Below are positions 28,983-58,940 of a stretch of DNA of 64,000 nucleotides, piece after piece (the first letter of the stretch is position 1; the number at the start of each line of letters is the position of its first letter). Where the stretch lies: positions 27,344,001-27,408,000 of the forward strand of contig NC_087251.1 in NCBI RefSeq assembly GCF_037042905.1. Reading direction: 5' to 3'. The notes below the pieces were generated by a model. The model made no database searches, was not told the origin of the DNA, and saw nothing but the letters and a program-made list of their open reading frames with translations. The DNA comes from Lytechinus pictus (lineage: Eukaryota). The translations under genes were made by a program, and so were the position numbers.

Positions 28983-29111
28983 ATGGCAACTGATTTGGCA
29001 TTCGACCTCACTTTTTACGAGAGGCGTCGGGAACACAGGTCACCTTCTTTGCCAGTGATACGCAGTGACCTGACAGTAGAAGCATGCCTTATGCGAAAGT
29101 ACTCACGGGGT
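28983..29111 (+). CDS. Candidate alternative first coding exon, MATDLAFDLTFYERRREHRSPSLPVIRSDLTVEACLMRKYSRG
   Basis: Good Kozak context (ggaATGG), 43 codons, phase-0 donor GGT|gtaagt, at the 3' end of a ~1 kb GC/CpG-elevated non-repeat island. Confidence 0.45.
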
Positions 29112-32100
29112 GTAAGTACCACTAGACGCTTCTCTTTATGATCCAATTCGTGAAGGATTGAAGCAAACAACTTCCTAGTCCATTAACCACTCTTCGCATG
29201 CAGCTGTCTCTCAGGCTGTCTCTTTAGAGCTAGAAGGCTTTTTAAACTATGTTTTAAAAGTATTTAAATTTGTTAATGCCATCTTGTTCCAAAATAGGTG
29301 TTATCTTGAATTAAGTTTGAGATCCAATCAAAGATTTAAGAATACAAAGTTTTCCCTCATTGTATGCTGTAATGACATTATATCTTATAGAGAAAATAAT
29401 TATTAACAGAGGTAGTTTTTTTAGTTCTTTATATGTTTTCATTGAATATTAATTTTTGTTCTTTTACCTTAGGATAGGATAACAAGTATGTTTATGCTCA
29501 TTATGTTGATTAATCTCTTGCTTTCCTGAACCAAGTGGTCCCTATACAGAGGCTATTCAGCTTACGAAATTCAAGAGTCGACAGATAATATAACATTAAG
29601 CAAAATTTTGAATTAAAAAAAAATCCTTATAAAATGGGGGGGGGGGGAGATTTTCCAGCAAATTGCCCAGGAAATTCCAACTTATCACTATCAAGACAAT
29701 GGGATATTTAAATTGGGTTTACTTGAATTTGAAAAAAAAATATTGGAACTGTTAATTTTGCATTACACATTTTTTTGATAACCATACTGCATGTTATTAT
29801 TTCAATAACATAGCATATATGTATATATTCAAGCACATATTCATATGTAATTTGATATTTATGAGACTCCATTGTATTTTACTCCATCTACATGGAATAC
29901 CCTTCCAGGGCACGCTTCTCCACACCTTGTATTCTGACGTTAGTTCCCTGCGAGTGCAACAAGAAGTGTAGCCCCTGACATGTCCCCAAAGGCCCAGCTG
30001 TTTCCTTTCAATGTGTGCAGCACACGCTTGCATTGCAGATCTAATTACAGCTCTGATAACTGTCAGTTCATCAATTAACTACTACAGAGCAGCTCCTCTG
30101 AGGCTACTGCGGCTTGCCCGTTGTGTAGGCCTTTATCGAGGAGTGGAAACTCTTCTTGCTAAAGTGCTAATTTTGCAATCGGCATTGTATCCAACCAAAT
30201 ATTTTTTTTTCTCAGAATGCTTTTTAATATTTTTGTATGTTCTGTAGATGGTAATGCTTCATTCTGTAGAGAGAATTGATGCCTTTCTCGAAGTACAGAA
30301 ATTAGAATGTTACAGGTGAAAAATTCTTTAATTTTGGCTTTTAATGTGAATTAATCATGTCTCTCTTTTAATTGGCCAAACAATATCAACAAGATTTAAT
30401 TATTTGAAGAGGCTGTTACCTCTCTTGTGCTGCTTTGGTTTGATAAAGTTAATAAGTGAATGTCTGGGTCTTTTATTGAAGTTATTCGATTTGACGACAT
30501 GGTATTCATATTCGATGAAAGGATTTTAATGAAACACCATGAGTAATGCACTCGTGAAAAATGATGGTTTATTGAATCGTGTATTTACACACAGAGACAG
30601 AGATTTACGCAGTGGAGGGTGATTTGAGATGGAAAAGAAAAGGATATGTAGACAGAGAGAGAGGGGGGAGGGTAGAGAGAGAGGGAGCGAGAGAAAGAGA
30701 GAGATAGAACATGAGAAGTCAAGGTTTTGAGGCGATATGTTAGAGGTAAAAGACGAGAAGCGGGGATATGTTCCAAGGGATGAGAGAGAGAGAGAAAGAG
30801 GGAACAATGCAGGAGAAAACAAGATGTAAAGGAAGAATAGGCATAAAAGAGTGGCATTCTGACTCAAGCACAACACAGCCAAGCTCGTTAGAAACGATAT
30901 CAAGGCCCTTCTACTCTGCTGCCTATCCCCACAGGTGGTTTCTTTTACTGGGAAGGCAACCTGCCCGATCTTCTCCAAGGCACAAAGATCCCATTATGAT
31001 CCTGCTCGTCCATATCTAATACTATTAATGGAGCAGCAGTCACGTACATAGTCGTATCATTCCAAAGATAGAAAATCTGTGCAGTCAGACATGTAGAGCA
31101 GATCCTTCTACTTGAAGTTAGATTGAAGCATTCATTGATTAGGGGCCCAATTTGCATTTCCTTACGGTTTCTCACTGTCTTCAAAAGTTATAGTTTTATT
31201 TTTCTAAATGGGTGGGTAATAAGATAGGTTTGACCATAACATTTGGCTCGAGTCAGAGGTCTATCGGTGCATATCATGTTCATGGTACCAGCCACCTCCC
31301 TTCTTCCTTGAAAAAATTGTGATGAATTGCATGATATCTTGAAATCTTTTGAAATTGGCCTCAAATAACTTGTCTTAATTTCTGTAAGCACAAGAGCAAA
31401 GCAATGAGTTATGTTTTAGTGCTTGCACTTAACCCAAATTGAGTTTTGATTGTGATGACCCCCTATTTTAACGGCATATGGGTAGAGTACTCTATGTTAC
31501 TAGATGGTTAATGAGAGTGCAATTTGTAATGCAATATGAAGTTATTTTTATTTATACATTAAATCTTCTTGAAATGTAAAAGTAATATTTATAGCTCAAA
31601 TTCAAACAAACTACATTGACATCAGATGTGTGAAACACAGATCAAAGTTGGGTATGTTGATTGATGTAATTTAATACAAATTCAATGACCTTCTCACTCA
31701 AAGATTAAGATATTCAGAAACCCTTTTTCTCCCCTTTTCATGTTGTTCATTGCATTTCTTAAACTTAACATTTTGAAATCTAAGGTAGATGTCAACATAT
31801 AATTTTGTCCTTGAAATCATAGTTTGTGATAAATTATACATGGAAAATAACAAAACAACATTGTTCCTCTTTGCCATGCTTATTAAATTGCATTTTATTT
31901 TTATCAATAAGAAAAAAGATGATATATCAATATCATCTTTATATGATCGGAACTATATATTCTGATATATTGAAAACATCTTCTCCCCATTTTTCATGTT
32001 TTTTATATTGCGTTATGTTGATTCTTAAAGTGTATATATGAACATTGCTCCAAATAACAGGGTATCATCAAACCAATATAACACATATTGTGAACAACTT

Positions 32101-39335: not shown

Positions 39336-40110
39336 TATGTGTGTGTAATTACAGTAGAATTATGCCTTAGCTGTTAAGCTGTGTTTCTACATCTGACTGT
39401 GAGCTTCATTACCTATGGCAAAAAAGAACACTTATCTTGTTACACTGCTGTAAAAGGGAGCAAGGTTTGCTTTTTAATGCTAGGAAAACGGATGAGAGGG
39501 CATGGGGGTGGGGTGTTAGATGCGATAAGGTTCTTGTTAGATGAGTTTCCCCACTTGACATGTCCAAGATGTAGTGTATTGGAGTGCAATTTGTACCTGG
39601 ATGATCTTATCAGCTTAAGAAGAGAGTAAAGTAGAGATACCTGGGAGACCTTGCTTATTAAATGGGATATTTTTATCATATTGGATGGCTCAGAATGGAA
39701 TACCAGAAATGTTCCAAGAGTTTGGGCAAATATTCCATGAATCTCGGAATATTGGCTCTATATGGATGATAAAAAGGGATATCGCATAAGTATGCAACCC
39801 TTTTACCCCATTAACGTTTATACTACATGTTCATGTAGATACTATTGTTTTAAAATGCTCATTATTTTATATACATTTTCTACTGATGCCATTCTTCATG
39901 TGATTGCCATTGCAAATTTCTGAATGTTCTTAGCTTCATCAACAAGTGTTGTAAATCATTTTTCCTACAGGAATTGCAAGACACATATTGCTTAATGCTT
40001 TGACTAGTCCACTGTAAATAATGCATTACAAATGAAGTGGATGAATATTTCAATGGAGAACATAAAATTAATCGTTTTCTTTTCTATTTCCTTTCTTTTC
40101 TTTTATTCAG

Positions 40111-40152
40111 TCGCTGGAGAGCACCCGGCGTATGCTGCAGATGGCAGAAGAG
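40111..40152 (+). CDS. SNAP25: SNAP-25 coding exon (equivalent of vertebrate exon 3), SLESTRRMLQMAEE, phase 0-0
   Basis: 42 nt. Long pyrimidine tract ending ttttattcag, donor GAG|gtaaga. Peptide closely matches human SLESTRRMLQLVEE and the exon has the same length. Confidence 0.97.
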
Positions 40153-41159
40153 GTAAGATGCGTTTGATAAACTACCCCACTTTAGATGAGTAGTAATGTG
40201 AAGGTATTGCCTACTGAGCCATCCTCTCTTTCTGTTTAGACCCTTTGCAAAATTACAATTATTGACAATATAATTACAAGAAAGTTGCTGCCCTGGGCCT
40301 GGCATAACTTGTAATGCAAAGATTAACTTTCATTCACTGATTAATCTGATGGTATTGATCGGACCTCAGATTTATCATCGAAAAGGATTGCTAACATTAC
40401 TTTGGAAATAAAGCAAACATGATACACTTATTTTCTGTAGTTATAATTTCATCAATAAAATATGAAGGGGATGGGATGGTACCTGGTAATACAAAGTAAA
40501 AACTAAGAAATGTACAACTCTCTTGTAGTTGTTCACAACCCTGTGCAAAAAACAGTGATATACATTCACTGAAGCCCTACATGTCTTCTCCTTTGCTGCA
40601 GTCAATGATTGACATGGTTGCTAAAGAACCACTTGGTCGCCCAACATCGTTGCGAAAACTGAAACGTCTCGGACTTGGCAAGTAACTGCATTCGCTTTAT
40701 TGGACTTGCAGCAAGGCCCTGGAAATGCACAAGGCTTGCATACTAATAGCAACAAGCCGGAGATCGTTATTGCTAAATGCTGTGAAATAGACCGCCTCGG
40801 GGCTGAGTAGCATGCGCTCAAAGACAGCCGGGGATCATGGGAGAGAGGGTCAAATGCCTCGTAAGACGAGAAGTCGATCAAGAAAGATGTGGTCATTTTA
40901 TTCCCTGGATTTGAGCCGATGAGGTTGAAGGGCCAAATAAAGAGCGGCAGATTGTGACTCCCCAGATTGTAGCATATGGAGATGCCATGCAGGGCTTGTA
41001 TTTCTATCGTACCTGGGACCCGCGTAACTCCACTTCAGTCACAATCCCAAATTACCATATTAAAGTTTCAATTGGTTTTCTAGGCAGATTGACTAGGATG
41101 GCTAATATACAGTAGGTTTGTTGGTATTTAATCTTATCTATTGCTCATTTCAATGCTCA

Positions 41160-41478
41160 GGACCTTGTTTCACAGAAAATTACAATGAGTTGATATAACT
41201 AGGTATGGAAGGCCATCCAAGTCACTGGGTTCTCCAATGCTTCTCAAGGAATATCATTGATCTAAGACAACCAAAACTGTCAATGGAAATGCAGTTAATC
41301 AAGGAGTAACAATATTTAAAAAAATGTTTTCTTGAATGTAATGAGAACTATCAAATCTGATTATTCTGTTGGCTTCACTTCAAATGATACCTTTTCCTCA
41401 CCACAACCAATGACTTGTATGGATTTTTATACATATGTGTGAACTTCGGTTAATTTCTCAGTCTTTGTGAAACACAAG
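41160..41478. mobile_element. Degenerate MITE
   Basis: Imperfect IR tgtttcaca...ccatccaagtcactgg / ccaatgacttgtatgg...tgtgaaaca. Confidence 0.4.
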
Positions 41479-43596
41479 AATATTGCCTCCCATGCCACAC
41501 ACAGATACCACCCTTCTGTTCTAAGCAGGTGTACCTATGTTTTGACACTTGTGTTGTTTCCTAACTATTGATGTGGTGGATGTATGATGAGATTGTGTTG
41601 TGAAATGAGTTGATGATGATGTAGTCTTTTGATATTATACCTATTTCTTCTCGTCTGTGTGTGTAATGATTTTTTCATTTTGTACTGTCTACCCAGTTCA
41701 TATATGCCAACTACCTGCAGAAATGACACAAATCGTGGAAATTTTATAGATATGCTCCTTTTAATGGCATTTGGGGTCGTGGTGGTGATACATAGATGAA
41801 TAATGCTCCATCTTTTTTGTAGATGACTTGCATTGGATGTATATCACAGCTTTCTGTCTGACCTTGGCCATAATCTTGTCAAAATCTACAATTTTGCAAC
41901 ACTGTTCCTCTTTGTAGGCCTATATGAACCAGGGTTGGAAGGTACTTACTAGGGTCTGCTGTTGGTGTGTTTTTGTATTTGATGTGATTCTTTTCGTTCT
42001 CTTGTCTTCTCTTCCCATTCTACCTGTCTTCACATCTCCCCAAAATGACGGTTCAAGCTTCAAAAGCTGCTATGAATATTAAGAGTAATAAAAAAAAAGG
42101 TCATACCAAACCAGAATCATGCATCACTTTCCTTAAATTTTGGTATTTTGATAAAATAAAACATTCTTACATTTACCAAAACATTATGTAACACCATATG
42201 TTTTGTTTGATTGATAGGTATAATGATCATGTTTTTTTTTTCTGATTCCACTTCCCTTAGCACTTTAGTACATGACCAAAACTATCTGTATCTGTACAAA
42301 TATTGAGCATAGTCAAACTTCACAGCTTTTAATACATTAAAATACATTAAAGTCTGAAGTACTTTATAGCAGAAAATTAGTTAGCTACTGTTGACAAAAT
42401 AGCTCCGCATCTTTTTTTATTGTTACATATGTTTACCTGTTATAGATTTATCATGAAAATCAAATCAATCAATGAAGGTTTCCTTAATTCCTCCTTTCCA
42501 TCCATTACCTTTCCTACAATACATCCTGTATTTCCAGGTTACATCTCAGGTTCGGGAGGAGGAGTCAATAATTTCATCTTGTATTATTCTAACCTAGATG
42601 AATATAACATCAGGGATGCATTCCACCTACCATCTCAACATCATATGCCTCCTCCTCATCATCACCCTCTCTCCTCTTTTCATACCCCCTTCTTATCCAG
42701 CGTTGGTAATGACAATTTGTTCTGAGATGAAGAAATGTCAGAGCAAATCGTTTTCATACAAGCAGCAGGTTTTTATCCAAGATGATCCCCATATGAATAT
42801 GCATATAGAAGTAAGGGGCAAAAGAGACAAGAAGTCAAAAACATATTTGAAAGTTATTTCCCTTTGAAGCAGTTTTGGTCTCATATGTATTGAATATGGT
42901 GTCAAATCTTCAGTTAATATAAAGATTCATGGGAACAAAATCACTATTACTGAAAGGAGCACAGTTAATTCCAACACCATGACAAATTGGCTCGAGCTTT
43001 TTCTCCCATGCAAACTACTCTGATTCATTCATTTTTTGCTATTAAAAAATCTCTCATTGATTATAATAAGTGTATTGAATAAACTTTTATTCAAGGTGAA
43101 CAATTTGCCACTCTTAATTAGTTTCAGAATTTAGAACAAAAACTTAAACTAGATACATATACTTGCTTCCATCATAGATTGGATACAGCATACAAGCAAA
43201 CAAATTCCTACTTCCAAATTGTTCAGATCAGATGATTCAGTTGTCAATGAGCTACTATCAAAATAATCTTGTTCATAGAATGTGTTAAAAATACACAAGG
43301 CATCTGGAAACGTACCCCAAAATTTTGAAAATAGCTCTTGCAAAGAGGCCTTATTGCCCCTTAAAAATGCTAACAAAAGATGTAACTTTGAATTACCAGA
43401 AGGAGGAAAAGTACATGTAGAGGTAGAGAAGGCAAAAAATCTCTTGTTTGAATATGTTCTGTGCTATATAAATATTGATAATAATGAATATGAGCAATAC
43501 ACACTAAAACTTGAAAAAAAAGATATGGTAGGAGGGGGAAATAATCTCACCCCCTTCCTTACATCTACAGTAGATATGAACATAGCACATATCTAG

Positions 43597-43743
43597 ACCC
43601 TGTTTCTTACTACTTGTTATAATAACAAATAAGCAGTAACAGTTAAAAACTACTAAAATCATTCAATTTGATTGGCTGATAGTGAACTTGTTATAGAATT
43701 TGTTTGATTATTATTATTATAGCAAGTCTTTTTAAAACAGGAC
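43597..43743. mobile_element. Degenerate MITE
   Basis: Imperfect IR cctgtttc...acttgttataataa / ttattatagcaagt...aaaacagg. Confidence 0.55.
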
Positions 43744-45822
43744 GCTTTTGGGTTCAAAACAAACCATACCCTCCCCCTAAAGAATAAGTGGCTCAAATTT
43801 TGAGGTGGATAAGCAAAAAAAAAATACCTTGGATAAGCCACAGGATTGGTGTCAATATTTTGCTGATTTCTCGCTGCAATCCATGTTAAGATTTTCATTT
43901 CAGTGTATATCTCTTTATGATAATGAATAAAAAACCTCAATATTCAGCTCTTGCTAACAAATCTTTCCTCCTTGTGTAAATAATACAATTGGAAAATTGA
44001 TCGTGAAGCTTATAATAAGATACATGTAAATTGTTTGCCCTGCTCCTGAACCCAGAATGGTTTATGAATGCTGTATTGAACGGAACATTCTTGATGCACC
44101 TAATATATAGTAAAAAAATATCACAGCTTAACCTGCTTCCATAACAAGTCTCCCTCTCTGTCTCTCTCTGATTCTCTCTTTCTGTTTTCCTATCCGTGTC
44201 TCTCTGTATCTCTGTCTCTTTTACTCTCAGTCTCTCTGTTTGTGTCTCACTGTCTCTGTGTTCCTTCCCCGTCTTTCTCTGTCTCTCTCTCTCTCTCACG
44301 AACCCTGGCTTTCATTGTAAATCAAGCCCCTTGCACTCTCGCCAATCGCCGTCGCAGGTCGGGATAAATACTCCTTGATTCTCCACGGATATCAATATTT
44401 CACACCGGCTGTAATGACACGGGACTCGTGTGAATAGAAGTGTCAACATTAAAGTTGCACAGGGGAGGCTAGACATCTTAATACAGGCCTGGAATTCATG
44501 GGGCATCTGAAAAGGGGACATGAAAAGCCAGCAAGTCCAGCTTTATTCATTGAGCAAAGATAATTTCATCCTTAGCTTTGGGTAACCCTTGTAAGATTAT
44601 ATGCATTTAAAGTGCTTAATTGATTAATTTGTCATCTGCAAGTTAGTGATTGTGTTACCTGCAATCCCAAATTTTGCATTATTGGTTAAAAAATGTTCAT
44701 TTTCATGAAAAAAAAAATCATTATTTGAAAGATGATTAAGCCTGAATGAAGCACAATTTTAGAAATATTTAGTACTCCTCTCGATCATAAACCTATGTAT
44801 TACCCTATATCACATGTATGTCAAGCATTTATAGACATTTAAACAGAGACAGTTCATTATCAGTATTATAGAAATTGTAAACTATAAACCTATTCAAAAT
44901 ATGTGCAACCTCTTCCCCCCCCCCCCACACCAAAATTTATAAATAATAATAGATGAATAACGAAAAGTAATAATATAACCTAAGAGAAAGGTAATAAGAT
45001 GAGCTTTGTAGTATTTAGATTTAACATGTAAGTTCAACAAACGGAAAATGCACAAGGGCAAGCAAAAAAAGATTATTTGGTAGTTATTTGTAGTTATTCA
45101 ATTACAATGCATATCACACGTATATTAGTGTATTAGTAATTGATAATGGAGAAAAAAAAATTATTAAAGTTAAACAATATAAAAAGATGAGATAATAATT
45201 GCAAAGATGATGATGATTATACAAAATGCATATAGCCATTGTTCTGTTAATGTGAGCATTTGCTCCATCATTTCTGCATTGTCGAGACCTTGTACTCAAA
45301 ATGAACTGTCCCCTGTCAAGATGTCGCTAGCTAGCATAAAGATTCAATTTTACTATTTGTGCATGAGTAGGGAGTAATTTCCACCAGCTTGACACACCAG
45401 CATCAATGTTTGCTAGGAGCATTCAAACACTAACCCTGGCTAAGCAGGCATAGGTAAATTTGAGAAGATGTCCAAACAACGTTCACTCTTCGATTGAACC
45501 AGGCTCTCTGGACATGAAGCTGCTGCTTGTATTACTCTCATTTTCTTCTCCGATCTCGTAATCATTTTTATTTTTGCTCATTTTTTTCATTTTCACTCTT
45601 TACTTTGAATAAAATATTCCTCTTTTTTTTCTTCTCTTTTTAAACTTTCTTTTCCCTCTCTTTCAATCTTTTTTTTGGTTTTTGTTTATATTGCCCTCCT
45701 GACACCCATTTTCTTCCCTAGCTACCTCTATTTTTTCATCTCTTCTCTCTTTCTACTTTTGCCCCTCCCCCCGACTCTCACTTTCTCTCTTGCTTTCCTC
45801 CCTTCTCTCTCCCTTTCTTTCC

Positions 45823-45996
45823 TAATACCTTGGTCACATTTGTTCTAAGGCGGCCGTACGGCGAGTCGAAAACAGCCGTTTTAACATTTTGTGTACCAAC
45901 TACATATACATGTAGGTGGTTTGAATTAAAATTAATCAAACGGCTGTTTTCGACTCGCCGTACGGCCGCCGTAGATCAAATGTGACCAAGGTATTA
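45823..45996. mobile_element. MITE with long, near-perfect inverted repeats
   Basis: About 59-bp arms (taccttggtcacatttg...ggcggccgtacggcgagtcgaaaacagccgttt), TWA flanks. Confidence 0.88.
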
Positions 45997-46312
45997 ACGC
46001 TCCCGCTACCTTTCTTTCCATTCTTCTCCCTAGCCCTCTCTCCAAGGCTTTGTCATCAGGTCATAATGCTGATGTTCCTTTGAATTAATTTTCTCCTAGA
46101 GATGTTTGAATAAGGTGTATAGCTAGCTAGCTTGAGTCAGGCAAAATGAATAGCAAAGCATTCCCATAGGCATTATCCTCATGAACTTGATTTTTTTCAC
46201 ACACACTTTTTTCCCCTGTAAGACAGTGATGATACAGTCCTTTCATTCAGAGCCATTCATTTTTCATTTTTTTGTGTTCTCATCATGTTGAATGTGTTTT
46301 GTATTCATTTCA

Positions 46313-47249
46313 TTTTTGTCTCACCTGCATAGCAGAGTGAGACTATAGGCGCCGCTTTTCCGACGGCGGCGGCGGCGTCAACACCAAATCTTAACCTGAG
46401 GTTAAGTTTTTGAAATGACAGCATAACTTAGAAAGTATATGGACCTAGTTCATGAAACTTGGCCATAAGGTTAATCAAGTATTACTGAACATCTTGCCTG
46501 AGTTTCATGTCACATGACCAAGGTCAAAGGTCATTTAGGGTCAATGAACTTAGACCATGTTGGGGGAATCAACATCAAAATCTTAACCTAAGGTTAAGTT
46601 TTTGAAATGTCATCATAACTTAGAAAATATATGGACCTAGTTCATGAAACTTATACATAAGGTTAATCAAGTATCACTGAACATCCTGCATGAGTTTCAC
46701 GTCACATGACCAAGGTCAAAGGTCATTTAGGGTCAATGAACTTTGGCCGAATTGGGGGTATCTGTTGAATTACCATCATAACTTTGAAAGTTTATGGATC
46801 TGATTCATGAAACTTGGACATAATAGTAATCAAGTATTACTGAACATCCTGTGCAAGTTTCAGGTCACATGATCAAGGTCAAAGGTCATTTAGGGTCAAT
46901 GAACTTTGGCCAAATTGGGGTATTTGTTGAATTACAGCCATAAATTTGAAAGTGTGTTGGTCTAGTTCATAAAACTTGGACATAATAGTAATCAAGTATC
47001 ACTGAACATCCTGTGCGAGTTTCAGGTCACATGATCAAGGTCAAAGAACTTTGGCCACGTTGGGGGTATTTGTTGAATTGCCATCATATCTCTATAAGTG
47101 TATTGGTCTAGTTCATAAAACGTGGAAATAAGAGTAACCAAGTATCACTGAACATCTTGTGCGAGTTATAGTAGTTTTCAAAATCAGCACTGCTGCTATA
47201 TTGAATCGCGTGATGCAGGTGAGACGGCCAGAGGCATTCCACTTGTTTT
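46313..47249 (+). mobile_element. HINE-like element, subfamily A, about 5 units
   Basis: Same termini and core as 6429-7392. Small deletion between ggtcaaag direct repeats near 47040. Confidence 0.88.
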
Positions 47250-47438
47250 CTAATAGAGCGCAGGAGGAAAGAATAGATTTGTTTATTTAATTTGTGTGTG
47301 TGAAGGGTGCATGCGTGTTTGGGTGCGGCTTTGCTCTAATAATCATGACAAAAGAAATTGAGAATTTTTTTAAAAATTTGTTGATATCTTTTTTATATAT
47401 AGTGAGATAGGATATTCCATTTATGGTAACAATTCATC

Positions 47439-47658
47439 AGCGTTCATCCAAACTGTCGTTTCAGTCAATTTTGAGATTTTTGCAGAAAATGAGAATACAA
47501 GTTCTACTCTATTCATATATAAGTAAATTTCTAGGCAGCAATTTATTTTAGTTTTCGAGATATGAGGGGATTTTCAAATTATAGTAAATTTGAAGTCGAT
47601 TTTCTCTGAAATTGGTTACGCACTGTCGTATTGCGATACAACGGTTCAGATGACTGCC
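47439..47658. mobile_element. Degenerate MITE, same terminal motif as 58941-59164
   Basis: gcgttcatccaaactgt at left, acggttcagatgactgcc at right. Confidence 0.45.
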
Positions 47659-48107
47659 AATGAATTGTGTGGTTAGGTAATCTTTGATATTAATAGGCTT
47701 TTCTTGACAAATAATACCCATGTTGATATTATTTTAGATCTCGAGTCATTCATATCTAGGCAAAAAAAATGAAAGCAAATGGCAAGATTGTTAGAGCAAG
47801 AAAAGACATGACATTTTATTTATTGAACCTGCCACCAAATTGATTTTACAAAAGTATAAAAAAGCTGAAATGAGTTCAAGATATTCAGCACAAAAAAAAG
47901 AGGAATACTCCAATGATGAATATTCCCGCCTTGTCACGCTTTCTCTATTTGCCTGTGATGATTTCATGTCTTGGTTGGAGTGCTTGCATTTATCCCTTGA
48001 AGCCCTTTCTATGTATGTTACGTGCTAGCTTTTTCCACTCAGTCCCATAGGTGTGTTTCTGTGTGTGGTGGTATTATTCTTGATGTGACATCTTATTTCC
48101 ATCTTAG

Positions 48108-48156
48108 AGTCAAGATATGGGCATCAAGACATTAGTAATGCTGGATGAGCAAGGAG
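48108..48156 (+). CDS. SNAP25: SNAP-25 exon 4a, SQDMGIKTLVMLDEQG(E), phase 0-1
   Basis: 49 nt, acceptor tttccatcttag, donor GAG|gtaaga. Homologous to human SKDAGIRTLVMLDEQG; includes the zero-layer Gln. Confidence 0.96.
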
Positions 48157-49676
48157 GTAAGAGAAAGAAAAGGGGGCTCAAGGGCTCCGTTTAGAGGGAT
48201 GCAGTCTGCTTTTCAACATTTTATCACCATGTTTATCCACTTATTCTTCACTGGGTTTTTTTTTCCCCAACTCTTATTCATTCTTGTTTGCATGATGTGG
48301 TGAAATGCATTGTTTTCAATCTTTGATCAATTTTGTTACAATATATTTCACTATACGAGTGAAGTAAATGTAATGGTTTGAAGCAATTTGGTGACTGGAC
48401 ATGCACTGTACCTGATTTATCGAGAAAAGGCATACCCTTTTCATATCAACCACAAGCCGATGATGTATTACACCACAAAGTGCTCAATATCATGAAATGT
48501 GTCCCATAATCAATTTTTTACAGTGTGTTTTCAGCTCACTTTCTTGCATCACAACCTACATTTACTTAACAGGGATTGGATGGTTAGTTGGTTTACCGCT
48601 GCGGAGAATGATTCAGACAGTCCTCTTTCTAAGAAATTTAATAAACCAACACAAAAGATTGTGATTATAGAGCGATTATAATTATGAATAAAATATCACG
48701 AAATGTTCCATGAGAATGATAATAAATATATGTCCTTGCCATTCACTTGTTCCAAGTTTTATTGATTAAAGATTGCAAACATGCTGTTTGATGCTTGTTC
48801 CTTTGAAGTTCAGTGCTTCCATAATTTTCTCAATATATTTATCAGGAAGAGGACTGCCTCATTCATTGTGTAGCAATAATAAAAGCTAATCAATCAAAAA
48901 GCAATCCTGAAAGCATGCTTAATGGTATGAGGAAGATTTGTTTTTCAGTGAGATACTTTTTAAACAGACTGCAACATTAGGCAATGATGAAAATCATGCT
49001 GATGCTAAGAAAAGATCTAAAAGTCGAATAATGAACATTTATTGCAATTGTAATTTCTGTGTTTACTTCCTTTTTAAGGACATCTCACATTGTTATTTGT
49101 AACCAATTTTCTGAGAAATTTTTCCCCATTTGTATTCATGCATTTTGGAAACATTGTGCAGTGGTACACTAGCATGAGATCCATTGCCTGACATTGCAGT
49201 TTGCTGGAAAGATTGAAAAGATTCTGTGCGGAAGAAAACAAATCGTGTCAAATCTCAAAAGATAACCCATTAACATGACAATGCTCAGCAAAAAAAAAAA
49301 CATAACAGCTTTATTCCAAGAATTAACTGTGTTATATTGCACAAAAGCGAGAACCTTTGTCATGTAATATGCTCTGCATTCATGTGAATGTAACCAATAC
49401 TAATATCTATTTATGAAATGCTGTGTTTTAAACCACTAAATCTTGACACATTCCATTTTCCTTTTTGCCTGTAGCAAGTAGATTCATGGTAACAGGGTTT
49501 ATTCTATTCAAATCAGTTGTATTTTATTCATTTTTTGTTCTTCGTTCTTTCTTCACTTCTCTTTCGTCCCTTCTCCCACTCTCTCTCTCTCTCTTACTCT
49601 TTCTCTCTGTCTTTCATTTCTTTGTTCCATTACATTGTTCTTTTTATTGACGTGATTGCTACCATCATCAATGTAG

Positions 49677-49725
49677 AGCAAGGAAGCGGGTATCAAGACA
49701 TTGGTTCTCCTGGATGAACAAGGAG
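49677..49725 (+). CDS. SNAP25: SNAP-25 exon 4b (duplicated alternative exon), SKEAGIKTLVLLDEQG(E), phase 0-1
   Basis: 49 nt, acceptor atgtag, donor GAG|gtgata. Same length and phases as 4a, 12 of 16 residues identical, five synonymous differences at conserved codons. Confidence 0.9.
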
Positions 49726-49752
49726 GTGATAAAATAGTGACTGTGCTTGTCC

Positions 49753-49850
49753 CCATGCCCCCATCACACCACTCCTTGCATCTCATCCTTATCTCCATCA
49801 TTAACCCCACCCTTACCCCATCATTAACCTATACCCAACTCCTAAATCAT
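49753..49850 (+). promoter_or_regulatory. Candidate intronic splicing enhancer: YCAY cluster downstream of exon 4b
   Basis: 10 YCAY tetramers in 49753-49824 and an 11th at 49847, starting 28 nt after the exon end. Confidence 0.6.
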
Positions 49851-50557
49851 AGTTGTGATTGCGTAGTCTATAACATAACCTGTACAGTTACAACCATTCC
49901 CAAATGTAGTGTAGTGTAGCTTAACATGTACTCTGCAATCATTGCTAATCAAAGTGTTGTTAATTGAAGTTTAGTGTTAGTGCTTAGTGCTCAGAGTGTG
50001 TATTTATTAACACGTGTGTGTTGCTGTGGAGTTTAAATAACACTTGTCCAGCTGAAATAATTTTTTTTTATTTTCTTCAATAATAGGCATGTTTTAAGAT
50101 GATAGAAAATTATAGGTGATTTTAGAGAAGGGAATTTTGTGAAACAATTGAGGAACAATAAAAATATTTTCCTTTTGATGTTATAAAAGTAGAATATGTG
50201 CATATTCAAAGAAATATGAGGCAATTGAAATGTCCTTATATCACATACAAAATGTAGGTGTAATAGTTACGCATGCATGTATGTAGTATATTGAGAATAT
50301 AGACTATATCATAACCGTATTTCCCTTGAAGTTTTAATACATGACACAATTATGAAATTTTATTTTTCCAATGTTTGCTTTAATATGGAATCAGTTTAAT
50401 TCCCCAGTTGTTTGTTCAAAGAAAAAAAAACATATTTCAAAGTTTTATTAATGTTTTTTTAACTTGAATTATAAAAAAAATCAATAAGTAATATTTTTGG
50501 AATTCAGGTTGATATATTGAAATAAGATGACAAGAATTTATTATTTAAACAAGGCAA

Positions 50558-50619
50558 AAGAATCAACAACATATCTATTGGGTATTCAAAGAATCAACAA
50601 CGTATCTATTGGGTATTCA
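50558..50619. repeat. 31-bp tandem duplication
   Basis: aagaatcaacaac(a/g)tatctattgggtattca twice, one mismatch. Confidence 0.9.
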
Positions 50620-53600
50620 AGTTGAAAAACTTTGGAAAACATTGTTATGTTTCTAAGTAGAATATATTTTTGTTGTGTTTGAGACAGTTCATTATACTTT
50701 ACATGTATAGAATTTTGAAAGAATAATGAAGCTCCCACATCATTTTTCCAAGAAACACTATGTTTCTTATAAAAACAAAATGTTTATTATTCTTCTATAG
50801 CCTCTTTCAAATATAGTAAAATTGAGCTCAGCAACTCACAATCACCTCACTTATGCTAATCAATAAACACTGCATGCATCAGATCCCCGAAATTGTCTTA
50901 AGTTGAGTAGACAAATGTGTGTACGTTAATATTATGATTTGTCCCCAAAACCTGCACAACTCAAAGTTTACTGACGCTAACTTTCGTTCTAAGTATGATT
51001 GGGTAACAACTTTTTTTTTGCCTTGCTACCAATAAAATCTTTCAGTCTAATTTTAATGCATTGTTTTTCCAGAAAATGTTACTCAACCTTGTTGCTAAAG
51101 CATTGCACCATGTCAGAATGAAGCTTAATTGAACTGATAGTAATATGTAACATTCACTGAGCCGACTAAATGCAACATCCAACCTTATTCTAATCCATCC
51201 CTGCAACCAACTTCCATTTGATATTAATAAGTTCTCTTTTTTTAAATATTTCTGTAAAGATGTCATGTTGTTTTTACATAATTGAGTTATCACAAAGTTA
51301 TCGTCCATAAATTGCGAAGTCATATGAATGCTATATGAAGTTTTTGAAAGACATCAATTATTAGCATTTTCAGTCATGTCTATTTTCTTCTTTCTATAAT
51401 TGTTTTGAAAATTTATAGAATTGCCAAGTGCTCACAAATATGTTTTTCTCTTAATAGTATTCCTATTTGGAAATAAAGATATTCAGTATGGTACAAGAGC
51501 AATTGGTCCGTTTAATGGACAGTATATGCTATTCAGAGAAACTTTCTAATGTTATTGATTATAAAGCTAAGATGCAGTTTGGAAACTAAAATGCTTTCTT
51601 AGGGAGAACATTTGAAATGTTGAAACCACAAAATAAAAACTTACAAGTTATGTTCAGACATCCCAAATCACCAAATTCTTCCCATCAAACTCACGACATC
51701 CATAATGTTTCCTACTTGTTAAAACCCTGGTGACAATGATTTTGTTTCCACTTGAGAATTCACTCACTGTCATTGCCAATAAACATGCATGTCTTTGAGG
51801 TGTAGCTGGAATTATCGATTTCAAGATCACTATGTAAGATATACTTTGGTGTTTTCACACGAGGGTGAGAATTCTTCATTGCAATGAAGAAGTATAGTCG
51901 TTATATTTGATTGAATACCAAGCATCACCTAAGACCACAGTTGGTTGAAATTTGCCATTTAGTATTCCGGTGCATGGCTTGTGTCTGGGTATCTACCCAA
52001 TCAAACATGTATGGAGTAATAAAGCAGAGATAGACAAGCCCATGGGTTTATGGGAGTATGTGGAAAGAATGTTGGTCCCACTAATGTTAGGGTGTATGTG
52101 TGCTTCCCATTTTCAGGCCAAAGTTTAGTTTAAAATACGATGGCTCCTTTTCATTTGAATGCTTATAAAAAAAGGTGCATTTATGATCAATGTTTCTTTC
52201 TAAAGACTGTCTCTTGGGAAGCATTAACAAACACTTCTGTGCTAATTTTGTTAAAGACTGTTCCAATTCATTATGATTGCTTCCAGAGCTGGAATTTACA
52301 CTTGCATATATAAACGTTGATAGAAAAATAAAGTATTCTTATTTTACATTTGCTCTGGTGTGAACAAGCGCAGAGTCCTATTCATCCCCAAAATGGATAC
52401 CTTGGCCTTGCATCATACTAGGTGCGCAGCTTCTCACATCAGGAGTCTATGGGGGAAACGTTTGGGGGGAAATCAAGGGATGTGCAAAAAAACAGGTTAT
52501 CAGATTAAAGCCTTTCAAAGTTTTGGTAAATCCCCCCCAAAGTGCATGTCACTATTCTGATTGATTACTAGATGCTCCTGCCCTACAACAGTTATGTTGT
52601 GAAGTTTGAAAAATGAGAAAACTTGTTTTATTTGATAAAATTTGTGAATTACATGTAAATGAATTCATTTATTTTGAGAATTCTGTCTCTAATTTGCCGT
52701 ACATTTACTTAATGAATAAGTTGATTTGGTGATAACTTTAACAAAAATATTAAAGCCTTTTTATTTATTTGTCTCAGAAAGACAATTTCTGAAGAATCAC
52801 AGGAAATTGTCAACATAGTATAGACTTTCTTAATCATAACAGGAAATGCGATACAGCGATAATGATCAATTGATAATTATACACTTCAGGCTTGAAGACA
52901 AGCAGCCTGACTGAGACTGATAAACAATGCAAGGAAAAATTCTCGGCCTGGTTCAAGTGAGATAGTATTTCTGACATGCGTTACCCTCAATTCATACTAC
53001 AAGGCTCTCATTTTTGTGATGCCAAATTGGTGAATCAATATGATGTGTTTTGAGGATGCATTCTCATTCATTCTATTCTGAGATAATCAATAATATTTTT
53101 GTCTTCCTGTATCTTGGCTTCAATCAATGTATTGATATGATTATTATTAGATTTAATACTTACACAATAGTATTAGTAATGACAGTCGTACATGTGAGTA
53201 AAAGGGTACAATGATTATTTATACACTTATTTTTTTAAAGAATATTATAGCTTGAAATAGTTTTGGCATAGAGCTTCTATTTTAACAGGTAATGTCTAAT
53301 TCAGTATGTATCTAAAAATAGGTTCACTTGAAAAGTACATTTTCCTAATGTAGGATAGAGCGTCTTTGTTATTTATCATAGTTTTGCTATTTAATTTTCC
53401 CATGAACTCTTTCACAATTATTTTTTTTTACGACAGGTGCACTGTTGTGCAACTGATTGTCAAGTATTTATGAAATATATTATGAAATCAGTTGCCTATG
53501 ATAGAAAATTTGGAGATAAGTGCTGAATATAGAAGAACTGCATCTTAAAATGTCAAGAACCAATGTAATAACCAAGTAGAAGGCATAAACACAATCTTTA

Positions 53601-54157
53601 TTTCTTTCATTTTGATATAATACTATAGCCTAATTTCATCTTTGATAATGATTGCTAATTGTCCTCCATCAAGATGAATTAAAGTTTGAATAATTCATTT
53701 GCTAAATGCCTTGCCCAAGCTAGAAAGGTAAAAAAAACAAATTGTATATTAATGTTAACTGGATGCTACTTTGGTTATTTCTTGCAGACATTATTTTACA
53801 TCTAAAACCCACCCAGTTAATTTAATGAGTTGATATGGAAAATAAAAGGTAGAAGGGAAAAGGAAAAGGTTTATCAAATTATAAACAAATGCTGATTTCA
53901 AAATGGTCATATAATTCTTTAATTGTGATTGATAAAACATATAATGTTGGCAATTCTATGACATATTCATGGGTGTTTACATGTAAAGAGGTGTCTGGGG
54001 TTCAGGGAAAAACAAATTCAAACCATATATATTTTCTTCTTACAAATTTAGGATTATCATGTGTCAAACCATTTGCATTTATAGGGAAGATTCCAAACTT
54101 GACCTGATGGGATTGTACACAGTTATATATTCAAATAAATTGTTTTGATTTTCAGGG

Positions 54158-55341
54158 TTTTTGTCTCGCCTGCATAGCAGAGCGAGACTATATAGGCGCC
54201 GCTTTTCCGACGGCGACGGCGGCGGCATCAACATCAAATCTTAACCTAAGGTTAAGTTTTTGAAATGACATCATAACTTAAAATGTATATGGACCTAGTT
54301 CATGAAACTTGGACATAAGGTTAATCAAGTATTACTGAACATCCTGCCTGAGTTTCAGGTCACATGACCAAGGTCAAAGGTCATTTAGGGTCAATGAACT
54401 TAGACCATGTTGGGAAAATTATTTTCAAAATCTTAACCGAAGGTTAAGTTTTTGAAATGACATCATAACTTAGAAAGTATATGGACCTAGTTCATGAAAC
54501 TTGGGCATAAGGTTAATCAAGTATTAGTAAACATCCTGCTTGAGTTTCAGGTCACGTGACCAAGGTCAAAGGTCATTTAGGGTCAATGAACTTTGGTCAA
54601 GTTGGGGGTATTTGTTGAATTACTATCATAACTTTGAAAATTTATGGATCTAGTCCTTGAAACTTGGACATAGGTTAATCAAGTATTAGTGAACATTTTG
54701 CCTGAGTTTCAGGTCACATGACCAAGGTCAAAGGTCATTTAGGGTCAATGAACTTTGGCCAAGTTGGGGGTATTTGTTGAATTACCATCATAACTTTGAA
54801 AATTTATGGATCTAGTTCATGAAACTTGGACATTAGGTAAATTAAGTACCACTGAATATCCTGTGGGAGTTTCAGGTCACATGACCATGGTCAATGGTCA
54901 TTTAAGGTCAATGAACTTTGGCCGTGTTGGGGGTATTTGTTAAATTACCATCCTAACTCTGAAAGTTTATGGATCTAGTTCATAAAACTTGGACATAAGA
55001 GTAATCAAGTATCACTGAACATCCTGTACGAGTTTCAGGTCACATGACCATGGTCAAAGGTCATTAAAGGTCAATGAACTTTGGCCGTGTTGGGGGTATT
55101 TGTTGAATTACCATCATAACTTTGAAAGTTTATGGATAGAGTGAATGAAATGTGGACATGGGTGTAGTTGACAGTCTTAAGTCTCCGTTCAAATGTCATT
55201 TATGGTCAATGAACGTGGTATTATGTCATTATATGAATGATGTTTTTGTGAATAATTATTTTATAGTAGTTTTCAAAGTTAGCACTGCTGCTATATTTAA
55301 TTGCGTAATGCAGGCGAGACTGCCAGAGGCGTTCCACTTGT
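54158..55341 (+). mobile_element. HINE-like element, subfamily B, about 6 units
   Basis: Subterminal IR at 54163 and 55308, CGG microsatellite, tandem core. Confidence 0.88.
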
Positions 55342-55385
55342 AATAGTAAGTTATTATGGTTGTCAGTGTCACTCTTTTCAACACG

Positions 55386-55685
55386 ATAATAATAATAAAA
55401 CATTGCTTATATAGCGCATATAACGATGATATAATCATGTCTCTATGCGCTTTAGAAAGAATGGAGAAGAAAGAAAAGCCTGTTCACAGAGGAGCAAATA
55501 TATAATCAATTAATAGGTACATGTATATCTTATTTTCCATAAGGAATGTCTTCAAAAGGGATTTAAATGATTTTACATTATTAGCTTGTTTAACAATATC
55601 GGGTAATTTATTCCAAAGTTCAGCAGAGGACATTTTGAATGAACGAGCGCCGTAGAATTGAGTGTTAATTTCTGATGTCATCGAT
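55386..55685 (-). mobile_element. L2-like LINE 3' end
   Basis: ORF2 C-terminal motif RSF....LWNKLP.......SFKSLLKTFL, followed by an agcgcata...tatgcgct stem and a (TTA)n tail. Confidence 0.8.
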
Positions 55686-57555
55686 TATAGCAAGAACTTT
55701 AAAATGGTGCCATTTTCTGATTTTCAATTTCCTTGAGCTATTGCAGTCGCAATGGATCCTGACATAACAGAATGTGATATTTCCATATGTTGTGTATAGG
55801 CTGTCCATTGACAAATAGTTCATTCATCTCATTGTTCACTTGTTCTGATATTGTCTTAAGTAGTCCAGATTAATTATTGGCTTATTATTAATATCCTTCA
55901 ATCAATTCATTTAGAATTATGATTGTGATTTAATCTATCCAGGTTTAATTTTAGCAATACATTGTTTAACCTTTTTTTACTTCCCACATTTTAATACATC
56001 CATTGTTTCATATGCATGTATACAGCTTTTCTCAAAGTTAGAAATCCATTTATCATGAATTTAACACAATCACTGCATGCAATTTTGAATTTTATTTTCA
56101 CAATATTTCTTAATGCATGTTTTACTGATCTTTATATTTGTCTATTTTGCCAAGTCTGCTCCCCATCAAGTTGATTAATAGAAAAGCTTTTACAATTGAA
56201 TAAAAATCAGATATAAAAAGAGAAATTACATAATTTGGTAATATTTTATTTTGCATATAATTAATTTAATAATGCATATGAGGGAGTGGATAATGTCACA
56301 CAATTTCCAACTCAGTTTTAGTTTATATAGAATATTTATTTGTATGAAATGCAAAATATTTTAATGTTTTTGTTTCAATAATGAAACTAATTTGACACCT
56401 CATTGGCATTGTACAGTGTCAGGAGAGTTGAGAGTTTTACTATCAAATAAAAAAAATATTTTAATTGAAATATAGTTTATGCAACTTAGATTTTTAACAA
56501 AATAGAAGGGAACATGATGATATTACATCATGTTTTATATTTCTATGTTTTGATGGATCTAGTTATCATTTTGAATAGGTATTTTGGTTTGCTCTTTTTT
56601 GGATTTTAACATATCATTATTTTGATAAAAAGTTATTTATGCATGTAATGGCAAGAGTAAAATTTATATAGAAATAACATGCTATAGATAATGAGATTTC
56701 TTGGCATTTTAATAGTATGCAGTGTATTTTAGGTAAAATGTGTATAATGTTAATTGTTATATATACTTTTCATAAACTGTTATTTTGTTTTTACATTTAT
56801 TCTTTGTATTTTTGTTTATTATTTTTACTGTTGTTTGTGTGTTTTTTATAATTTCTTAATTTTTATTTTTTTCTCATCTTTTGTAATATTAATAAATTTT
56901 ATGTGTTTTTTGTTAATTCACTTCTTACTTTTTTATATTTTAGTTACTTATTTTTATTTCTTCAATTCTTCTTTCGGGGTGGGGGTAGAAAATATGCACT
57001 TGGCCCATTATGGCTATTAAAAGGCTCTAAAAGGGCCACTCTACAATGTAGAATTTTGAATTATATATTATTGCCAATCAAATGCTGTGTTATAATGATA
57101 ATAACTTCAATAGTCTTGAATAATAGAATAATCATGAATGTGATTTAAGCTGTCCCCCCAACAAAAAATAAGAAGAATACTTGTCTTGGGGAAAGGGGAT
57201 TTTTCAGACTGGCTGCAATGTTTCTTATGCAAGTTGTAAAATTTGGGTACAGGAAGCTGAAATGAATTTAACAATATTCAAAATTATTATAGCAAATTAA
57301 ATAATGAAATCGCACTTCAAAAAAAATATGACTTTAATGAATGCATAATATGAAAACTTGAATATGAAGAAAATAGATCCGAAGAAGAATTGCAACCCTG
57401 GTAGCAATTATACCCCTCGAATTAATTGTTATTCTCATAAAATCAATTGAACAATCAAACAATGTTTATAGCCATAGATTGTCTCTATTTGAAATTATGG
57501 ATACATGCTTAATACTTTGTGTGCTTTTTTTTTAATTACAATTGTCGAATAATAG

Positions 57556-57673
57556 AGCAACTTGATCGGATTGAAGAGGGTATGGACCAGATCAATACAG
57601 ACATGAGAGAAGCTGAGAAGAATCTCACTGGATTAGAGAAATGCTGTGGAATCTGCGTCTGTCCCTGGAAAAA
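57556..57673 (+). CDS. SNAP25: SNAP-25 exon 5, (E)[38 protein letters not shown], phase 1-2
   Basis: 118 nt as in vertebrates, acceptor aatag, donor AA|gtaagt. Encodes the C-terminal half of SNARE helix 1 and the cysteine palmitoylation cluster. Confidence 0.98.
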
Positions 57674-58940
57674 GTAAGTTCTCATTTATAGAACCACCCA
57701 TTCACTATGACAACGCAGTGAAATGCTGTGGGTGAAGTGGCAATATTTCCGACCTTGAAATTTCTCCCAACATTAAGAAGATGCAGCCAACACAGACACT
57801 TTTTCATTTAATATATCTGTGGATGAATTGCTATTTTGACTGGACTTCAACAACGAATAAAAGGCCCATAAAATAAAAGACTCCCCGTGCCAAGCATCTC
57901 CCGCTTATCCTGAAAAACATCCTGTTCCGTAAATCCGCATCCTCCAGAGTCAGGGTGGGGGATCAGGCAGTGACATGATCTTAACCTCAGATGCACTTTG
58001 GCAGACAAGGCCGAGCCACTACAAACTCTCATTCAATGAGGGGCTCGGTCCGTCATATTGCATCGCCAAAGCTGAAGATTTGTTCACAATATTATTGTCC
58101 TCTCTTCTCAGGCAGTGGTACATCTTTGTGACGCCCATCTCGTACTGTCGCACATCATTGTGCTGCGTGATAAACCTATACTGACATATTGTGCTCTTAG
58201 CCTAAATTGGTTTGATATTGGCGTTTATGATCAAGGGAAACGGGTAGAGTGATAGCTACGACCCTTTCAAAGACAACCCCTCCCCCCTCATACCCACATA
58301 CAATCTTTTTGTTTGGCAGATAAGTACATGGAGGTATTTTACCCACTCTTATTTGCATTTTGATTGAATTTTGTTTACGTATATGGGTGGTATTGCCAAT
58401 CTGTGCTCTGAGCATTGAAATAAATTGAAAGATGTTTCTTGTTAGATTTTTTTCTGTTTTGCGGGTCAAGGAGTATGAGCCAGCTTGATTGCTAATACAA
58501 ATTTATATCCAAAGATATAAAGATATACATTAGCCTTTTCAGCATGTTCAAATCATAATCAGATATGGAGCTCAGTTGATACATATTCAATTTGTACGCC
58601 ACATGTATATCTCTCTGAGGCAAATAGCTGCTCTCTTTTTTCTCACTTTGTTATCTACCCCCCCCCCCCCTTCTCTCTTTCTTCTGTCTGTATTAGCTGT
58701 CTTTCTTAATTTTTCTTTGTATTTCATCCTTTCCTTTTTATTGCTTTCATTTTTCTTCTTTTCTCCTGTTCTTCTTTTCCACCATCTGCTAAGTGTTTAT
58801 GCTTTTGTTGCCAAATCTTGAACAATGCAGACTTTTCAAATGCCTACATTTCTTTAACAGTACATCAATACATACTGTAAATGTAGTAGGCCTACAATTG
58901 TGGAAAATTATAATACTTTTCCTTATGATGCCAACTTGTA

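Follow-up and report, generated by a model that had tools for sequence, protein, structure and literature searches.

Exons 4a and 4b of the sea urchin Lytechinus are, with high probability in our judgement, a tandem-duplicated and mutually exclusive pair within a single SNAP-25 gene, and represent in this gene an ancient exon-4 cluster of bilaterians, in which a Q-type and a K-type version of the same 16 codons alternate. The pair is real, it is conserved, and it is already deposited for Strongylocentrotus and annotated for Lytechinus and Diadema. The duplication is older and wider than was first proposed, yet already present in the databases for the same animal group. Below we describe the two exons, their use in RNA and in deposited proteins, their spread across phyla, their position in the SNARE complex, and their relation to the exon 5 duplication in vertebrate SNAP-25.

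The exon pair and its use in sea urchins

The window, by which we mean the whole stretch of 64,000 nucleotides that was analysed, carries the 5' half of the gene for SNAP-25, a Qbc-SNARE, on its plus strand (Table 1). Membership in the SNAP-25 family (Qbc-SNARE, Pfam PF00835) follows from homology over the N-terminal SNARE motif and the start of the cysteine-rich linker. The translation of exon 5 matches 554 proteins at E<=0.001, and among the 120 matches listed the full-length ones belong mostly to PF00835 and are mostly named SNAP-25, next to short unnamed fragments that carry no Pfam entry. By tblastn, exons 3, 4a, 4b and 5 agree with SNAP-25 proteins of sea urchins at every residue (100%), and P0129, which has the 4a form, hits SNAP-25 chains of solved structure with E values down to 9.8e-70. 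Upstream of these exons, residues 1-50 of P0007 and P0123 align to 28983-29129 with 92% identity, and residues 1-43 of the L. pictus and L. variegatus RefSeq isoforms are matched exactly up to 29111 (both by tblastn). The canonical first coding exon of S. purpuratus is absent from the window in the same type of search.

Table 1. Features of the SNAP-25 gene within the window (positions counted from the first letter of the window)
Feature	Positions	Strand	Evidence or remark
Alternative first coding exon (MATDLAF...KYSRG)	28983..29111	+	Lytechinus SNAP-25-like RefSeq isoforms; donor GGT/GTAAGT
Exon 3, 42 nt, SLESTRRMLQMAEE	40111..40152	+	100% to P0007 (tblastn)
Exon 4a, 49 nt, Q-type, SQDMGIKTLVMLDEQG	48108..48156	+	AG acceptor, GT donor, protein match, 3-to-4a joint
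Intron between 4a and 4b, 1520 nt	48157..49676	+	Unlike the other flanks; repeats only short and of chance size
AG-free CU-rich zone, 158 nt, 81% pyrimidine	49517..49674	+	Upstream of the 4b acceptor
Exon 4b, 49 nt, K-type, SKEAGIKTLVLLDEQG	49677..49725	+	AG acceptor, GT donor, protein match, 3-to-4b and 4b-to-5 joints
TGA met when 4a and 4b are both included	49715..49717	+	Translation of 3+4a+4b+5
Exon 5, 118 nt, CCGICVC cluster, single copy in the window	57556..57673	+	Sequence, tblastn, X2 contig coverage

The original prediction described two 49-nt exons, flanked by AG and GT and lying some 1.5 kb apart, and all of these particulars hold. Each copy is preceded by its own AG and followed by its own donor (GAG/GTAAGA in 4a, GAG/GTGATA in 4b). 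The predicted 12 differences in 49 nt, five of them synonymous, were recovered by counting: the 16 codons divide into 7 identical ones, 5 with a synonymous and 4 with a non-synonymous difference. Equal length, the same phase on entry and on exit, separate splice sites and 75% identity over the exon mark the two as tandem-duplicated exons. The sole long direct repeat in 47300-50600 pairs 48105-48165 with 49674-49734 (61 nt, 75% identity) and comprises the exon with 3 nt upstream and 9 nt downstream. Since the repeat reaches no further than these few flanking nucleotides, the introns are unalike, and the likeness of 4a and 4b ends at the splice sites, as had been claimed.

Both exon-4 peptides match SNAP-25 proteins at 16 of 16 residues, which excludes chance as the origin of the two exons. 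A profile built from 93 exon-4 peptides, the window's own two among them, was run against all six frames of the whole window and found two copies only (E 1.2e-11 and 1.3e-9). There was no third copy or relic in this search, in which the next-best score had an E of 7.9 and the lowest other E was 1.8.

The reading frame provides a simple logic for exclusive use. Because each exon has 49 nt (3n+1), an mRNA with both copies, or with none, falls out of frame and soon meets a stop codon. Translation agreed with the prediction on both counts, as the join of exons 3, 4a, 4b and 5 runs into the TGA given in Table 1 and the direct join of exon 3 to exon 5 also stops early. The frames of 3+4a+5 and 3+4b+5 are both open. 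A productive mRNA would accordingly be one that takes exactly one of the two copies, and mRNAs with both or with neither would presumably be degraded by nonsense-mediated decay (NMD).

In order to follow use in RNA, the raw RNA-seq runs X19 and X20, which bear the same species label, and the contig sets X2 and X1 were mapped to 40000-57800. All joints listed have GT..AG ends, and exon 3, whose borders both fall between codons, is the donor side of the joints to 4a and to 4b alike. The joint from 3 to 4a is found in one X2 contig with a depth of 99.7, and exon 5 is covered by a 781-nt X2 contig of equal depth (99.7). The joint from 3 to 4b occurs in 4 reads from 3 starts in X19 and in one X1 contig, and that from 4b to 5 in 5 reads from 3 starts in X19, in 1 read of X20 and in one X1 contig. 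The X1 contig with the 4b joints has a depth of 277.6 and extends past 57673 into exon-6 coding sequence. First mates map to the minus strand, which in usual stranded libraries corresponds to RNA of the plus strand.

A joint from 4a to 4b is absent among the 15 joints listed, beside which 344 weaker ones exist, and so is a joint from 4a to 5; the raw depth on the exons is below 1.5x, where rare forms with both exons or with neither lie below detection. Use of 4a in Lytechinus is documented by the 3-to-4a contig, the exon 5 contig of equal depth and the database proteins. The joints listed and all 20 of 20 deposited echinoid proteins hold exactly one copy per transcript, at low read depth and with the 4a-to-5 joint outside those listed. 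The proposed mutually exclusive use is thereby supported from both sides, by the 3-4a joint in X2 and by the 4b joints in X19, X20 and X1.

The deposited proteins carry the same alternation. The 4a peptide is identical to that of P0129 (GenBank AAC35867) and of the L. variegatus isoform P0126, and the 4b peptide to that of P0122 (NP_999754, the 'ovarian' SNAP-25 homolog) and of P0123. Among the cDNA-derived proteins of S. purpuratus, AAC35867/O44419 has 4a and the 'ovarian' homolog AAC83577/NP_999754/O76338 has 4b. Between P0122 and P0129 the only differences are K42Q, E43D, A44M, L51M and G161S, and isoforms X1 and X2 of L. variegatus differ at just the four exon-4 residues. The Lytechinus/Strongylocentrotus cluster (n=11) has 4a in 6 proteins and 4b in 5; the Diadema cluster (n=9) has 4a in 5 and 4b in 4. 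RefSeq lists isoforms of a 'synaptosomal-associated protein 25-like' with either exon for L. variegatus, L. pictus, Diadema setosum and D. antillarum, these XP isoforms being model predictions. A simple split between neurons and other cells is not indicated, because the 'ovarian' cDNA carries the K-type.

Public echinoid records therefore contain the same two peptides in otherwise identical proteins (the S. purpuratus pair has G161S in addition), and the difference is not labelled there as a mutually exclusive pair of exons 4. The original prediction was made unaware of any prior description; in this respect it has to be corrected, as both forms were already in GenBank and RefSeq and a fly counterpart is catalogued in the supplement of PMC9741552. 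In print the pair is apparently little discussed. We found no paper in the full-text literature on an exon-4 pair in the SNAP-25 of echinoderms or other invertebrates, or linking the phyla, apart from that fly supplement; the original sea urchin cDNA papers may mention the pair.

Age and spread of the two exon types

For comparison across phyla, the exon-4 peptide was taken as the 16 residues before EQLDR in all stored homologues. Two types recur: the Q-type reads SQD[VMIL]G[IV]KT... and the K-type SKEAGI[KRN]TLV.... Two or three exon-4 variants are present among the isoforms of one gene in 27 species from 5 phyla. Both types occur in 10 echinoderms, which cover all five classes, in 3 hemichordates and 9 molluscs, and also in the nemertean Tubulanus, in Limulus, in two barnacles and in the fly Condylostylus. 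In Amphiura, Haliotis, oysters and Condylostylus the number of variants rises to three. Alternative splicing of the ancient cluster would thus persist in all the groups named, from echinoderms and hemichordates to molluscs, the nemertean and arthropods.

The resemblance is by type rather than by species. Among 422 unlabelled inter-phylum quartets, the variants group across species in 358 and within a species in 29, with ties in 35; each quartet has 16 residues and the quartets share ancestry, hence they are non-independent and the count is not a probability. The 29 within-species cases comprise 16 echinoderm-arthropod, 7 echinoderm-mollusc and 5 mollusc-arthropod quartets and 1 of a mollusc with the vertebrate gene pair. 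The 27 species in the quartets were chosen for having two variants already seen; amphioxus, tunicates, a rotifer, Owenia, a nematomorph, a tardigrade, a coral, Trichoplax and Drosophila Snap24, each with one variant seen, did not enter the comparison. Single exons are equally close over long distances: starfish 4a equals the amphioxus exon at 16 of 16 residues, with Limulus 4a one residue off, and starfish 4b equals the lamprey SNAP-25 exon at 16 of 16.

The window pair falls into the two types as defined in this analysis, 4a agreeing with the starfish and amphioxus Q-type at 15 of 16 residues and 4b with the limpet K-type at 15 of 16. Of its 12 conserved codons 5 differ synonymously and its introns are unalike, as expected of an old pair. 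The claim of an old, conserved duplication is thus borne out, with an age far beyond that of the echinoderms (358 of 422 quartets by type). The best reading of these comparisons is that one ancient duplication would have given rise to two copies, both held under selection, with occasional extra copies added since.

Three other explanations deserve to be weighed against this reading. The duplications might have been independent in echinoderms, molluscs, arthropods and others, and the Q/K pattern might reflect convergence on two favoured surfaces of the helix. The exon has just 16 codons and the types are defined by 4-5 positions, some quartets do pair within species (29 of 422) or tie (35), lineage-specific extra copies do arise, as the species with three variants illustrate, and PMC9741552 reports that tandem exon duplications of human and fly have often converged. 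Against this speak the 358 quartets that pair across species, the fact that both types are identical or one residue apart across phyla, and the old appearance of the window pair itself in its synonymous changes and its unalike introns. We therefore regard convergence as improbable.

The remaining two explanations concern the function of the copies. In one, a single copy is functional, and annotation or contigs have merely caught a second exon that is in decay or spliced at noise level; the raw RNA depth is indeed very low, the 4b joints alone are present there, and 4a comes from one X2 contig. However, both peptides are unchanged in Lytechinus, Strongylocentrotus and Diadema, both forms exist as full-length GenBank proteins, both copies have intact AG/GT sites and open frames, and the depth of the X2 contig with 4a is comparable to that of the X1 contig with 4b (99.7 and 277.6), all of which makes a defunct copy very hard to credit. 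In the other, the pair serves to control quantity rather than to make two proteins, in that frame-shifted mRNAs with both exons or with neither would lower SNAP-25 output via NMD. Both aberrant combinations do lead to premature stops, but the 4a-to-4b joint is absent among the joints listed and the strict conservation of both peptides across phyla argues for selection at the level of the protein, so that we attach next to no credence to this explanation.

Position in the SNARE complex and exon choice

The primary interface of SNAP-25A with the C2B domain of synaptotagmin-1 is formed by K40, D51, E52, E55, Q56 and D166, and in the available part of that source only K40Q, L47I and V48T distinguish SNAP-25A from SNAP-23 at or near this interface (PMC8967716). 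These three exchanges correspond to positions 2, 9 and 10 of the exon-4 peptides of gar SNAP-25 and gecko SNAP-23, and exon 4 therefore encodes residues 39-54 of SNARE helix 1. The stretch includes three of the six primary-interface residues of SNAP-25 (K40, D51 and E52). Urchin 4a and 4b share G43, D51, E52 and Q53 and differ at 40 (K in 4b, Q in 4a), 41, 42 and 49. Q53 is the glutamine that helix 1 contributes to the zero layer, and G43 belongs to a core layer. As judged from these residue positions, the changes between 4a and 4b lie on the solvent-exposed face, beside and partly within the docking site of the calcium sensor. The switch of isoform would then likely tune the coupling of the SNARE complex to the calcium sensor, or to other partners of helix 1, by cell or by stage, and leave the core layers untouched.

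The 4b exon also stands out in its splice sites. Its donor is weaker (GTGATA) than that of 4a (GTAAGA), and the AG-free zone upstream spans 158 nt in 4b versus 55 nt in 4a, the 99th percentile for random intronic positions of the same gene being 139 nt. A long AG-exclusion zone that is rich in CU is a mark of a distant branch point and of a regulated exon bound by PTB-type proteins. The zone in front of 4b offers a lead in this direction, and predicts that the branch point lies far upstream and that the 3' splice site is regulated. From the weaker donor and the 158-nt zone together, it is probably at 4b that the choice between the two exons is controlled.

As to how the two exons exclude one another, steric exclusion is an unlikely mechanism with 1520 nt of intron between them. 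A search for competing RNA pairing gave no convincing candidate: the 3.3 kb searched in this single genome contain 32 inverted pairs, all of them short, AT-rich and of chance size, and none distinctive. Examples are 48213-48228, which is complementary to 49725-49740 at the 4b donor, and 48086-48102 with 50516-50532.

Relation to vertebrate and arthropod SNAP-25 genes

The urchin alternation has a counterpart in the vertebrate paralogues. Vertebrate SNAP-25 and SNAP-23 show the same contrast of K-type and Q-type (K40Q) as urchin 4b and 4a, but in vertebrates it lies between two genes and in the urchin between two exons of one gene. Among 120 vertebrate SNAP-23 proteins, SQDAGIKTITMLDEQG is found in 66, and position 2 is Q in 114 and K in none. 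The exon 4 of lamprey and gar SNAP-25 reads SK[ED]AGIRTLVMLDEQG. We tentatively suggest, as a possibility we would not yet favour, that the gene had both exons up to its duplication and that the vertebrate duplicates each kept one alternative, SNAP-25 fixing the K-type and SNAP-23 the Q-type. In that case K40Q, which sets 'neuronal' SNAP-25 apart from 'ubiquitous' SNAP-23 at the synaptotagmin primary interface, would have begun long ago as a difference between splice forms and ended as one between genes.

A tree of 32 full-length proteins minus the exon-4 columns places SNAP-23, lamprey SNAP-25, tunicates and Trichoplax in one weakly supported group (82/81); it would be compatible with a duplication in the chordate lineage, which it does not resolve. 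The deposited proteins of amphioxus (3 species) are of the Q-type only, and in those of tunicates (5 species) the one form present is intermediate, TQDAGI[RK]TLVMLD[ED]QG. Because these proteins show one variant each, a live alternative to such a partition is that early chordates lost an exon type which later arose again by convergence. If the partition is true, invertebrates would obtain both a SNAP-23-like and a SNAP-25-like protein by alternative splicing of one gene.

The pair matters beyond this question. Half of what SNAP-25 contributes to the surface where synaptotagmin docks comes from an exon of 16 codons, and this exon appears to have existed in two versions throughout bilaterian history. 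Sea urchin eggs, embryos and larvae are classic models of exocytosis and have a single SNAP-25 gene; if the exon pair and the contrast of SNAP-25 with SNAP-23 are historically linked, they would be a simple system for the effect of K40 or Q40. The case also illustrates that short, real mutually exclusive exons are recognisable from raw sequence alone.

A related arrangement is the SNAP-25a/b pair of vertebrates, which likewise consists of tandem homologous 3n+1 exons in SNARE helix 1 that are spliced mutually exclusively (PMC2581893, available part). That event concerns the neighbouring 118-nt exon, which includes the cysteine cluster, and is a separate duplication of the vertebrate lineage. 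The original prediction had set the two apart, and rightly so, as the duplicated exon in the urchin has 49 nt and the vertebrate pair 118 nt, and the window holds one exon 5. Over the whole window, tblastn at E<=50 gave no match above chance level for a second exon 5 of the vertebrate 5a/5b kind. The exon 5 duplication is described as absent from Drosophila and Torpedo, and exon 4 is unmentioned in the part of that paper available (PMC2581893).

Fly Snap25 is among the genes with tandem duplicated exon substitutions in a 2022 catalogue (PMC9741552, supplementary table S4), and the human and fly SNAP-25 events are classed there as 'different region, convergent' (table S5); in the available part of these tables the fly exon involved is unnamed. 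Differential splicing of SNAP25 is also reported for a butterfly, again with the exon unnamed in the text available (PMC12857021). In the arthropod SNAP-25 proteins that we compared, it is the same 16-codon exon that alternates as in the urchin: the K-type SKEAGIRTLVALDDQG stands beside Q-type or other variants in Limulus, two barnacles and Condylostylus, and the alternative copies are more diverged than the urchin ones, for example SQDVGAKTMVNLQAQG and STEVGMRSIVMLDEQG.

Sequence elements around exons 3 and 4b

The AG-free pyrimidine zone that precedes exon 4b of SNAP-25 (Table) exceeds, at 158 nt, the 99th percentile for random intronic positions, and its sequence suggests that the branch point of this exon may be distant and the use of 4b regulated. 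Further upstream, positions 1-40110 of the window gave no tblastn match to the canonical first coding exon that SNAP-25 has in S. purpuratus and Diadema (MED.NDMNMRSELEEIQM...). In Lytechinus this exon is either missing or located more than 40 kb upstream.

Table. Sequence features of the SNAP-25 region (window positions)
Feature	Position	Description
Lytechinus-specific first coding exon	28983-29111	sole first coding exon found within positions 1-40110
Tandem repeat block 1	45940-47720	SNAP-25 intron; units of 163-192 nt
AG-free zone	49517-49674	upstream of exon 4b; 158 nt, 81% pyrimidines, (CT)n core
Tandem repeat block 2	53660-55440	SNAP-25 intron; units of 163-192 nt

Transcription of the intronic tandem repeats

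Both tandem repeat blocks are covered approximately 400-2200x by the raw RNA runs, whereas coverage of the neighboring SNAP-25 introns is near zero, and on both blocks the first mate of the reads lies nearly always on the minus strand. The same runs display loose read ends at 46312, 47247 and 55341 within the blocks, which indicates that the tandem-repeat reads derive from many genomic copies. The intronic repeat is a repeat family with high, strand-specific transcription.

Homologous substitution and SNAP-25 relatives in other animals

Exchange of homologous sequence also affects SNARE helix 2, for which the Lytechinus RefSeq proteins possess three alternative C-terminal ends that are homologous to each other. 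This C-terminal variation, which involves the last ~22 residues of isoforms P0121, P0123, P0125 and P0127 and is encoded outside the window, adds a second case of homologous-exon substitution to the SNAP-25 gene, beside exon 4a/4b. Substitution of the helix-2 end probably accounts for the high isoform numbers, reaching 13, seen in records from brittle star and acorn worm.

A second, more divergent SNAP-25-like protein, with SQEVGIKTLTELDQQG followed by EKLDRIEGG, occurs beside the main gene in two records, P0211 and P0222, one from the sea cucumber Apostichopus and one without a name; a separate SNAP-25 paralogue is therefore present in at least sea cucumbers.

In arthropods, alternative exons are read through in two deposited gene models: the barnacle model P0421 (Amphibalanus) carries a K-type exon 4 and then an additional exon-4-like stretch, and the stick-insect model P0035 (Timema) contains the end of exon 5 twice. 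Both are likely to be annotation artefacts that expose additional tandem exon copies.
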